Below are positions 1-55,070 of a DNA stretch of 64,000 nucleotides, in pieces. Within the stretch, counting starts at the first letter, position 1. The number at the start of each line of letters is the position of its first letter. Source of the DNA: Felis catus (Eukaryota); contig NC_058368.1 of assembly GCF_018350175.1 (NCBI RefSeq), positions 65,598,001-65,662,000 of the forward strand, given 5' to 3'. The notes under the pieces were generated by a model. That model saw only the letters and a list, made by a program, of their open reading frames with translations, did not search any database and was not told where the DNA came from. Position numbers and translations under genes: made by a program.

Positions 1-154
<154 letters not shown>

Positions 155-2083: not shown

Positions 2084-4080
2084 GATGTGTTTTAAATTGT
2101 TTTAATGTACTTGGGGGCACTATGTCAGTTGGTTTGACAGGATCTTGATTTTTGCTAAGATTAGATCTGACATGGGGGTTGACGAATTCTTTTTTAACAG
2201 TGCATCTCAGGTTGGGATGGGAGAGAAGTTGAGATTTTTTTCAAGGAAGCTATCGGCCAGACTTATTTTTAAAAATCCAAATGTGACCCTGATGAACTCA
2301 GCTTTTGAAGAGCCTGTCTTAAAAAAAAATTATGAAACTATGTAAATTTGGAAGTCACCATTCTCATTTCGGCTACTTCTTTAGGCGGTTACATGAAGGT
2401 CAGCCACACAGTTGTAGGACTTATCTTCTCATCCCGTGAAGGTGATCCTGCGAAGTCACCTGTTGGGGAAAGGGGTACATTCACACAGCCAGCTTTCCGT
2501 TTTCTCCCTTAGCTTTTTTCAAAAAGAACACTTCCTCACTGATGAGTATCAGTGAGTGTGAGCACCGAAGTATCTAGGATCAGTTGTGGAATGGTACCCT
2601 CTGAGCCTTATTTTCCCAGATAAAATCCGTGGTGCCGTGAAAGGCTTGGAGTTTATTTTTAGTGGTTTCCTATTATTCTGTGAGTCCGTTTGCATACTCA
2701 CTGGGGTCTCTTGATCCAAAGCATCCGTTTTGCATTTCTGCTGTGGTCCCACGTTCTCAGAGATCTTGATTTGTCATCAGGATTTTGCATGTTTTTGTTG
2801 GCTACCTGTTCTCCTTCGGATGAATGACTATTCCATGAGAAGGTGAGCACTCCCTTTCCTACCATTCTTATTTTCATTTAGGTAGAGTGGCAATTTAAGT
2901 TACACCTGATACATGTGATTCAGTCCAAACCATATTCAGAGAGGATAAATTTAGCCACTATTAACCATTAATCTATAGTTGTTGTTTTCCTTATTGTACT
3001 TTCTTAGAAATGTTTTGATTCTATTTCACTTTTCATTTTTTGTGGCAGAGGTGACTCCTAAAATTTGAAATTCCCAAACATTTAATGTAACATAGCATTC
3101 TGTTTCTTGCCATGTTCCTTCCTACTTTTTATTAATATCTTTGGTAATATTTAAAAGAAACACGGTATAGAATTGTAACTATTCATTGAGTGGTCAGAAA
3201 CTAACCCTGAATTAATATGAATTCTTCCCCACCTTTCCTAAATGATCAAGCTTTGCTTCATACTCCCATTAGTCCAAAACTTTGTAGCTGAGAGGCAATA
3301 AATTGCAAGAGTATATAATATCAATTGCAGACATTTTCCTTCTTTGGCAGAGGACTTTCTTATAACTGAGACGCTCTCTTTTTCTTTTTAAACATAGAAT
3401 TGAAATGTTATGAAGGTATATAAAATAAAAGTTTATATTCTTGGCACTGGTACTTTTGCAAGTGGTTCACAAGGTTTGGGTTAGTTGGTTGTTGTTTTTT
3501 CTTTTTTCCTTCTTTCTCTGGCCAAATCTCCATCTCTGGCTCGCATCGTGTACCCCTAGAAGCCCATCACCCTGCGGACTGGGGCTTAGCCTGCAAAGAT
3601 TTCCTCAGAACGATTCAGTGTTGCACTCAATTTGCTCTGTAGCCAAGACCAGACCTTTCTGTCACACCCCAGGGGTTACAATTATGAAGACCATCAGGTA
3701 TACCTGGCAGAGTGATCTCAGCATTACTCCCTTGCTTCCTACCTGTCTCACCTCTGCCAAACACCCGACAGCCAGAAGTTTGAAAACAAGTAAACAAATC
3801 ATATAAAAACATTCAAAAAAGGGAGGGACATCCTTGTGCACTTGCTCATTTTCCCAGGATTTTTGTGTTTAGTGACCATTTCACCTGTCAAATTGGCATT
3901 TGTGTCTAAATCACCGTGATTGTCATGCTTCTAAGTGGCTAATTTTTAGGGTTCTAGGAAAATAGACAACAACCACATGCTCATGTTGGTATAGTATAGT
4001 AATAAGAGACAACTCCTGGCCCCGTTCCTCGCTCTGTATAGATGTTAACCTATCGACCGAAGTGAGCCACAGTGCAGAGC

Positions 4081-4551
4081 TCTGATGTAAGTCAAGAGTA
4101 TTAGGCTACAGACTTGGTTTCATTCTCCTCGGTGGAAACTTGGCAAGTGACTTACCCTCTCTAGACCCCAGGTCCCTCGGAGCTCTTCAGTGGGGGACTC
4201 AGCATTGAGCCCCAGACTGAGCATTCCTGAAGCCCTGCTTATCGTCACTGGTACCCCTTAGACCCTCTAGTGCTTTCCAGTCTCCAAATATGCTAAGATT
4301 TCCTGAACAGCAGTATCCTCTCCTCTGTCTCTTGTGTCTGTCCTGTCCCAGTTATTGTGGGGAAGAGGTGATGATGTCTTGAGAGGGAAGTGGAATGAAT
4401 TTTGTTTAATCCTTAAAAAAGAAAATTACCTACCTAAATATAGTCTTGCCCCCAAGGAACCTGGGGCCTAGAGAGGGTAAGTCACTTGCCAAGTTTCCAC
4501 CGAGAAGAATGAAACCAAGTCTGTAGCCTAATGCTCTTGACTTACATCAGA
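4081..4551. repeat. Inverted repeat: 100-bp arms (4081-4180 and 4452-4551), 271-bp spacer, MIR-like arms
   Basis: Base-by-base pairing gives 95/100 matches with no gaps; arms contain the MIR-core-like TTGGCAAGTGACTTACCCTCTCT. Confidence 0.95.
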
Positions 4552-5449
4552 CTTATAAATAGCAATGGAATAGGAACTTGACATTTGCTTGAAATTATAA
4601 CTAAGCCTTTATTTGTTTCAAGCGGACACTGGCTAAAAATCATTGATATTCCTTTAACAAGGCAACAATGATATTGTTGGGTAAAGAATCTAGCCACATT
4701 TTTGGAAAAGGCAGGAATAGTATTCAATTAGAAGTTGTCTGTCAATTAAAGGGGAACGGGTGTTTTGTGCAAAAATGTTATTGAATCAGCTAAGCTGTAT
4801 TATTTATTCTCCTTATCTCACAAAGCCCTGGTAGCTTCTGTCTTAATGTGAGCACCAGCACCCTATTCTCCAGGAACGTGCATGGAATATGGATTCTTGA
4901 GAGACAGGAAAATTTCATTGAAGGGATATTTTATTTTGCTTATTTTTTCTTCAGATTTATTTGTGCCGAATTTTATTCACATTTGAAACTCAATATGAGA
5001 GTTTTTGTTGTTGTTTAGTTTGTCCTTCTTGGTCTTATTATTTTACTTTCCTTCCTGGTTTTTATTTATGCATTTTAATGACACACATTTGTCCAGAGAT
5101 TTTTGCAGCAAGTAAATTTTTAAGAGCAAAAAATAAAAATAAAAATAAAAAAAGTTGAGCAGTAATTTCCATCTTTCTGAAGAACTTATTCTATACTAAC
5201 ACAGTCAGCTCTGATTTTACTGAATGTGGAAATAATTTATACACAGCGACATAATATTTTTATACTGCAAATCTGCTTGTGTTTTCTTTTAAAATATCAT
5301 TTCTCATCTATATACTGTAGAGATGACAATAATGCAATGATATCTATAAAATATGGTTGAATTTTCCCAGAGAAAACACTTGAATAGGAAAAACCGCTAA
5401 GTAGTTTTCCATATGTGGTAGAATCGTCTATATTTCCTGTCATATGAGT

Positions 5450-15210: not shown

Positions 15211-16424
15211 CTCGTAACTGCCATTCTTCTGTTCCAATGTTGCTTTCTTGTCCATTTCCCCCCCCCCGGGAATCAAACAATAAACAGGTTCGTGTGAATT
15301 ACACTGTATATTTCACATTAGCTAATAGAGCTGGTACTGGGAGGCAGTGACAAATGTACAAAGAGCTGAAAGAGTTTCATTTTGAGTATTTGCAAAACAA
15401 GCGCAAGCTAACGGAGGATCATTTGTAGAAAGCTGAGCCATGCTGGGTGCTCATTAGGTAACTTAGAAAGACTCTCTGGTTTGCTCTCTCTTTCCCCCCA
15501 GTTGTAGATATTTGTATGTGTTTCAATTAAAATCTCCATTTGCTTCCAGCTGGCAGTGTTAGCATCCATTCCGCCAACAGAGAGCAAAGGGTCACATCCT
15601 CCTGAATGAGCCGACATTAAATTTTTTTTTTTTTTTTGCCTTCCCTGTGGAGGTACCTTGGAGCCACCCATCGCGGGCTTGGGGAGAAGCTTCCAAAGGG
15701 TCAGATTGCATGGGGACTTGTGCCTTATTTACTGATGGAGCTTCGGTAGCTGCTGGCCCAGATGCTGCAGCTGCTGTCGCTTTGTGGATTGGGGTCCAAC
15801 AGCAGCTGTTGTTCTTTGCTAGAGCGTGTTTCTGAAATTCCAAATTTAATAGTCTGAGACCCCAGTCATTGAAAGCTACGCTGAAAGTTAATTTGCTGAA
15901 TCCAAGTTTATTTTCCTACCTAAACCACGGTTAGTGACAGAGCCTTTCCCCTGCGATGCACAATAAAACGAGGAGAGGACTCATTTATTGCCCTTACCAG
16001 GCTGGTGAGGGAGAGGATGTGTTGGTTACAGAGCAGGGCACAGGCTTCGCAGCCTCGTGATTCGGCTGCACACGGACTGTCGGACAGTCAAACCTAGGAT
16101 CTGCTTGCTTTTGACCTCCAGAGCCTTTGGCAACTCGACAGACTAGAGTTTCTCCATGCCAGATGCTCAGAATTCTACGTGCTACCTTATAGAGTGTAGA
16201 GGTGAGATAATGTGCATAAAGCACCTACTATCATGCTAGCCTGGCACATAGTTCGCTTTTCCCATTTTTACCACACCGGCCCTGTCACTTCTGTGAGGTG
16301 TTCCTGAGAAACGAAAAGGCTCTTTGTTTCCTTGCTTCACTTCTGAGCACGGACTTAATTTCCTCCCTCAGAAATTCCTACATATTCAGAGAATTATGCC
16401 TACTGGTTACTAGGTAGAATTTGG

Positions 16425-39795: not shown

Positions 39796-39963
39796 AGTCT
39801 GCATTTTGATGCAAAACTATGTATCTCTCTGTCTCCATTGTGTGGATTCTAAGTCTGCATTTTGACACAAAACTATGTATCTCTCTGTCTCCATTGTGTG
39901 GATTCTAAGTCTGCATTTTGACACAAAACTATGTATCTCTCTGTCTCCATTGTGTGGATTCTA
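39796..39963. repeat. 56-bp tandem repeat, 3 copies
   Basis: Unit AGTCTGCATTTTGACACAAAACTATGTATCTCTCTGTCTCCATTGTGTGGATTCTA at 39796, 39852 and 39908. Confidence 0.97.
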
Positions 39964-54384: not shown

Positions 54385-54611
54385 TCTTTTTTTTTTAATT
54401 TTTTTTTAACGTTTATTTTATTTTTGAGACAGAGAGAGACAGAGCATGAACGGGGGAGGGGCAGAGAGAGAGGGAGACACAGAATCAGAAGCAGGCTCCA
54501 GGCCCTGAGCCATCAGCCCAGAGCCCGACGCGGGGCTCGAACTCACGGACCCTGAGATCATGACCTGAGCTGAAGTCAGATGCTTAACCGACTGAGCCAC
54601 CCAGGCGCCCC
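54385..54611 (-). mobile_element. SINEC_Fc (left member of a head-to-head pair)
   Basis: Full-length; TSD TGTGTTT(T)CTCTT. Confidence 0.96.
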
Positions 54612-54665
54612 TGTGTTTCTCTTCTGCCTTCCCTATATACATAAAGATAAATATGTATGTTTATG

Positions 54666-54872
54666 GGGGCGCCTGGGTGGCTCAGTCGGTTGGGTGGCCG
54701 ACTTCGGCTCAGGTCATGATCTCACGGTCTGTGAGTTCGAGCCCCGCGTCGGGCTCTGTGCTGACGGCTCAGGGCCTGGAGCCTGTTTCCGATTCTGTGT
54801 CTCCCTCTCTCTCTGACCTTCCCCCATTCATGCTCTGTCTCTCTCTGTCTCAAAAATGAATAAACGTTAAAA
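54666..54872 (+). mobile_element. SINEC_Fc (right member of a head-to-head pair)
   Basis: Full-length; TSD AAATATGTATGTTTATG. Confidence 0.96.
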
Positions 54873-55070
54873 AAATATGTATGTTTATGTATAGATAATA
54901 ACTATATATGGAGATATAGATACAGCTCAAGACAATGCCTGACACGTATAAGTACCCAATAAATAGAAGCTATTATTAGTTAATATCATTAGATCATAGG
55001 ATATCAAGTTCCACTTTACTCTTCACTCATAAGGCAATAATGGGAATAACTGTGCTTTGTTCTGGGCAGT

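Follow-up and report, generated by a model that had tools for sequence, protein, structure and literature searches.

An inverted repeat located 3.9 kb into a glypican intron of the cat probably arose by a single inverted duplication of a MIR fragment, made by repair or by a template switch about 4-50 My ago, and its two arms would have been drifting since then. The repeat was found in a window of 64,000 nucleotides (Felis catus, NC_058368.1, positions 65,598,001 to 65,662,000 of the forward strand), and all positions given here are those of the window. Most likely the locus is one tidy instance of a known process, i.e. an ordinary duplication of a MIR fragment by repair, and since each mammalian genome owes hundreds of local duplications to this process, the single case matters little. 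The locus is a convenient natural test case for duplication versus concerted evolution and for an inverted copy switching off a cryptic exon. If the arms cluster by species across placentals, short intronic repeats would stay matched for more than 80 My, and if the stem silences the exon, a local repair duplication would cure an exonisation. The gene and the parts of the inverted repeat are as follows:

1..137, + strand: coding exon of a glypican, 3' part (Pfam match to PF01153 with E 5e-14; matches to glypican-2 and glypican-1 in PDB), with the donor GT at 138
4081..4180, + strand: left arm (acceptor), putatively inserted as a copy of a MIR-like element's 5' part
4181..4451, no strand: spacer of 271 nt, consisting of unique sequence and then the continuation of the donor MIR
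4452..4551, - strand: right arm, the putative original (donor); it represents the 5' part of a MIR-like element in antisense orientation and has no flanking direct repeat

As the glypican exon lies on the + strand, this is the transcribed strand that gives the pre-mRNA. We take the exon to be exon 2 of GPC6; a protein atlas search gave no usable match to name the glypican paralogue. When a metagenome collection was scanned with the exon peptide, one of 403 candidate stretches was confirmed (contig L001, 1131-1271), and it contained a vertebrate-like glypican exon whose identity to the cat exon is 79% in amino acids and 72% in nucleotides. This contig is presumably host DNA in the metagenome collection; its intron could not be aligned with ours and had no comparable inverted repeat. 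A simple exon finder that required open frames returned 16 candidates, none of them close to the inverted repeat. Farther downstream, at 15563-15915, we noticed open frames overlapping on both strands, with an Ala-rich and exon-like composition; the minus-strand frame had no match in Pfam.

The inverted repeat is real and far beyond chance. The preliminary description had given the arms as complementary at 95 of 100 positions, free of indels and separated by a spacer of 271 nt, and our recount reproduced these values and the coordinates exactly. The five differences (4099/4533, 4127/4505, 4165/4467, 4174/4458, and 4178/4454) are all transitions, and they divide the arm alignment into perfect runs of 18, 27, 37, 8, 3, and 2 nt, with 37 nt as the longest. 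In a self-BLAST of the window the arm pair was found with E of about 1e-38. Folding, which had been proposed as a check, confirmed the stem: the repeat region reached -267 kcal/mol (z = -15.7), and none of 100 shuffled sequences was equally stable. The window has 108 self-matches with a length of 90 nt or more (median identity 82%), and the arms ranked second among them in identity; the best SINE pair reached 93.9%, and the sole match more alike than the arms was a tandem array with a 56-nt unit. This array (39796-39963, three units, 96-98% identity) is a recent local tandem duplication. The SINEs of the window look like what we take to be felid Can-SINEs, and two of them, inverted at 54402-54875, 54 nt apart and 89% complementary, could form another long intronic RNA stem. 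No further copy of the arm was present in the window, where the arm had a single match. An exact 23-nt pattern from the arm matched neither viral contigs nor prokaryote genomes (0 matches in each). In Rfam, no match in the window reached the gathering score, and the four weak matches in 3600-5000 did not overlap the arms. Apart from the repeat, a weak full-length match to U6 snRNA was seen at 3797-3885 on the - strand (23.4 bits, E 0.004, gathering score 44), possibly a decayed U6 retrocopy. It is very improbable that the inverted repeat is an artefact of the assembly or of the library, such as a fold-back chimera, because artefactual copies would be identical or show errors of the indel type; the arms differ by five transitions, one of them a CpG decay, with no indel and with a clean target duplication.

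We take the arms to belong to the MIR family. Seeding with two motifs assumed for MIR gave five matches in the window, two of which were the arms themselves, and profiles were built from three, and later four, MIR-like copies of the window with the arms excluded. These four copies are decayed, with 43-57% identity to each other (6 pairs). With the four-copy profile, the scores were 13.2 bits for the right arm (E 7e-4, z against shuffles 5.3) and 6.1 bits for the left one (E 0.11, z against shuffles 3.8). The three-copy profile matched the right element (4499 to 4398, E 0.0054) and reached about 50 nt into the spacer; on iteration this match weakened (E 0.38, then 0.02), and the left arm was reported in no round of the iterative search begun with three copies. 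By the four-copy profile, MIR likeness was found in the inner 100 nt next to the right arm (z 2.1, p=0.022) and not in those next to the left arm (p=0.37). In the hmmalign alignment the right copy runs across a deletion of 12 columns into the MIR core, and the continuation of the left arm stays unaligned. As judged from these profiles, the MIR remnant extends past the right arm only, for about 50 nt into the spacer, and the following features were assigned to it:

4398..4451, - strand: MIR-like continuation of the donor beyond the arm, from which a deletion of about 12 nt separates it (profile match and hmmalign)
4423..4441, no strand: probable microinversion of 15-19 nt in the donor MIR; an in-silico flip raises the profile score

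Flipping 4423-4441 in silico raised the score of the right copy from 13.4 to 22.8 bits and extended the alignment through the core, and among 234 control flips the top eight all overlapped this segment. However, the segment was first picked from what we take to be the MIR consensus, and a test with anchored alignments gained little from the flip (p 0.15); we therefore regard it as no more than a probable microinversion inside the donor MIR.

The two arms differ in their junctions, and an exact direct repeat of 7 bp encloses only the left one:

4077..4083, + strand: GAGCTCT, copy 1 of the direct repeat; its last 3 nt overlap the left arm (microhomology)
4180..4186, + strand: GAGCTCT, copy 2 of the direct repeat; its first base overlaps the left arm

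At the right arm there was no direct repeat longer than 1 nt. A flanking repeat of at least 7 nt was found at 0.58% of 20000 random positions of the window, at 0.42% when low-complexity repeats were left out, and at 1.0% of 3000 local positions. The microhomology at the junctions of the left arm amounts to 3 nt at the outer and 1 nt at the inner side. No poly(A) tail was seen at the ends of the insert, and retroposition was rejected for want of it. The left site computed as empty matches no other repeat element in the window. Taken together, the junctions of the left arm look like a templated insertion into a single GAGCTCT, and we infer that the copying went from the right arm to the left. 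Small quasi-palindromes flank the insertion point (4031-4079 and 4187-4218), and the duplicated target GAGCTCT itself sits in the palindrome AGAGCTCT; these quasi-palindromes might have stalled a fork. Two long inverted arms that enclose a short spacer also resemble a non-autonomous DNA transposon (MITE) with terminal inverted repeats of 100 bp. We consider this origin the most improbable of all: outside the whole two-arm unit there is no duplication, neither of TA nor of 8 bp (TGCAGAGC vs CTTATAAA), the arms are MIR-like, the right one continues into the spacer, and the window holds no second copy.

The 7-bp repeat at the left arm only, together with the MIR continuation past the right arm only, favours a duplication by repair or template switching. 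In such an event, an old antisense MIR-like element would have occupied about 4398-4551 in an ancestor, and a germline break or a stalled fork would have occurred about 270-370 nt away, at GAGCTCT. The free 3' end could have annealed to the MIR on the other strand via a few bases and copied about 100 nt, and the copied end would have rejoined 7 nt back, which would have doubled the target site, with one copy on each side of the new inverted arm. As to the pathway, a stalled fork could have led to a template switch, or a staggered break could have been mended by synthesis-dependent strand annealing; the sequence fits both. Both arms would then have gained transitions independently (5%), for which no function is necessary, and their pairing into a 100-bp stem in the pre-mRNA would be a by-product. 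Three of the differences could be polarised by eye against the four window copies; two appear derived in the left arm and one in the right arm, the latter being the CpG decay. The divergence of 5 in 100 has a 95% interval of 1.6-11.3%. With a slower felid rate, which we took as 1.1e-9, the duplication would be 24 My old (8-51). At the rate of 2.2e-9 (Pace et al.), it would be 12 My old (4-26). In the sense RNA, four of the five differences are A.C mismatches and one is a G.U pair, and these mismatch types do not suggest selection for pairing (p=0.38).

A less probable origin, still to be taken seriously, is that the arms are an old inverted MIR pair or a much older duplicate, in which conversion or template switching overwrote 100 nt, once or repeatedly, with the overwritten tract stopping at the deletion in the right copy. 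The inner end of the homology does coincide with the deletion in the right (donor) copy, the outer end is, by eye, close to the 5' end of MIR, and three of the five differences crowd into the inner 16 nt of the arms (p about 0.06). Moreover, a weak MIR likeness lies directly past the left arm: in the anchored alignment, the first 20 nt are in register with the continuation of the window MIR copies, with p=0.04 versus window 20-mers as the best of 2 anchors x 4 lengths, and p of at most 0.001 against shuffles. At 30-60 nt the left continuation gave p 0.09-0.44, and the continuation of the right copy was not significant in this test (p 0.32-0.94). We count the homology ends, the differences at the inner edge and the likeness of the left 20 nt against the duplication, since a conversion tract predicts them all. 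Conversion among nearby Alu copies, dependent on distance and identity, is documented as well (PMC6598467). On the other hand, the profile and the local alignment show no MIR past the left arm, and in an overwritten old pair the 7-bp direct repeat must be a matter of chance (0.4-1%). The independent MIR copies of this window also speak against it with their low likeness to each other; identities of 43-57% are too low for ordinary homologous recombination. With 48-49%, the arms have a higher GC content than the corresponding segments of the four window copies (36-47%), a point for conversion; however, the flanks adjoining the left arm equal it in GC content (47% and 55%), and GC-biased conversion was therefore rejected as evidence. 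The preliminary description had left the choice between a relatively recent inverted duplication and an old pair homogenised by conversion or by selection for pairing; the junctions favour the former, and the homogenisation of an old pair is the less probable of the two. The flanking direct repeat, the donor in the right arm and the probable microinversion in the spacer go beyond that description.

The donor of the right arm belongs to a predicted splice-site pair, which was scored with rough tables:

4352..4476, + strand: candidate pseudo-exon of 125 nt with stops when read in frame with the upstream exon; its acceptor lies in the spacer and its donor, AGG|GTAAGT, at 4477 in the right arm

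By these tables, the donor at 4477 holds rank 8 among the 3495 GT of the + strand, compared with rank 36 for the real donor at 138; the acceptor-like site at 4351/4352 in the spacer ranks 77 of 4336 AG, also on the + strand, and the pair 4352/4477 ranks 12 of 47 such pairs on this strand. With the left arm present, opening the donor is predicted to cost 29.9 kcal/mol, compared with 3.2 kcal/mol for the allele computed as empty; the duplication would therefore mask the donor. At 17 background donors the cost is 3.8-12.6 kcal/mol, and the value for the empty allele falls below all of them. Strong splice sites, a premature stop and a donor within the stem are thus all predicted, with the rough tables as the basis. 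Left arm positions also carry a weaker donor-like site (4087), 45 nt after an acceptor-like one (4042), and another acceptor-like site at 4172. It had been proposed that recombination between the arms could flip the spacer and move its splice acceptor to the other strand; an in-silico flip indeed removed the acceptor at 4352 from the sense strand, on which only a weaker one was then present.

These predictions raise the question of function. Whatever its origin, the left arm may be a selected splicing silencer, kept for its pairing over the cryptic donor at 4477 and thereby blocking the stop-bearing exon, or, in a variant, it may regulate the pseudo-exon via ADAR editing. The high rank of the donor, the stops in the pseudo-exon and the difference in opening cost made by the left arm are consistent with such a role, and paired inverted intronic Alus are reported to alter splicing (PMC2533698). 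We nevertheless consider selection for silencing unlikely. Eleven higher-scoring pseudo-exon pairs on the + strand have no such stem, the stretch 4281-4345 gave no branch-point consensus, weak local structure keeps most of the donor bases paired even if the region is folded without the left arm, and the arm differences destabilise the sense duplex (-183.5 vs -195.2 kcal/mol for the antisense one). It is doubtful on either origin, i.e. for a repair accident that was kept or for an ancient pair continually re-matched, that the stem would serve to silence a MIR-derived 5' splice site of a poison exon. If it did, the arms could possibly act as an antisense self-mask against exonisation, switchable by editing or by a flip of the spacer.

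A literature search, in which subscription journals were thinly covered, returned no paper on an inverted repeat in what we take to be GPC6 intron 2 and none on concerted evolution of such arms with inversion of the spacer in mammals; it also gave no match to the printed MIR core and, among the titles listed, none on MIR pairs. Several described systems can be compared with the locus. Lev-Maor et al. (2008, PMC2533698) likewise dealt with an intronic inverted pair able to form a long dsRNA near splice sites; the cat locus differs in that one MIR fragment was duplicated, the identity of the arms is 95%, and the predicted stem covers the donor itself. The SINE conversion described by Fawcett and Innan (2019, PMC6598467) and our locus both have nearby repeats more alike than their age predicts, but their repeats are Alu and ours MIR, and conversion makes no target-site duplication. 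The microinversions of Potapova et al. (2022, PMC8755829) measure 17-33 nt, and the flipped piece of 15-19 nt at 4423-4441 is of like size; here, however, it is deduced from a weak profile rather than from an outgroup, and its flanking inverted repeat is only 3 nt.

In the four-point template switching of Loytynoja and Goldman (2017, PMC5453318), a reverse-complement copy of nearby sequence forms an inverted repeat (orders 1-4-3-2 or 3-2-1-4), as at our locus. Most of the pieces copied in their events are short (median 12 nt, maximum 128), whereas here about 100 nt would have been copied from a template a few hundred nt off. The order needed here, with the return point before the leaving point, was not observed by Loytynoja and Goldman; Walker et al. 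(2021, PMC7954356), in the legend of S5 Fig, give one example of this order, and a direct repeat results from it.

Pace, Sen, Batzer and Feschotte (2009, PMC2671141) described repair-mediated copies of at least 50 bp (mean 162), with the donor at most 5 kb away and no poly(A); the 'doublets' described by Thomas et al. (2004) are related to these copies. Microhomology together with target-site duplication was reported in 3 of 39 proximal cases, with duplications of 4-21 nt; there was one inverted case (ACSBG2), the dog had 192 cases, and divergence proceeded at the neutral rate. Our insert of 100 nt, with a single donor in the window 271 nt away, falls within their size and distance, has no poly(A/T) tail at either end, and bears the scars of repair, i.e. 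the 7-bp direct repeat and microhomologies of 3 nt and 1 nt. In contrast, the inner microhomology of 1 nt is below their 2-9 nt, and the distance of 271 nt is shorter than their apparent peak at 1.2 kb. Since their pipeline excluded copies of transposon fragments, a MIR donor would have been missed by it. On the strength of its junctions and size, the inverted repeat of the cat is a probable member of this group of repair-mediated duplications.
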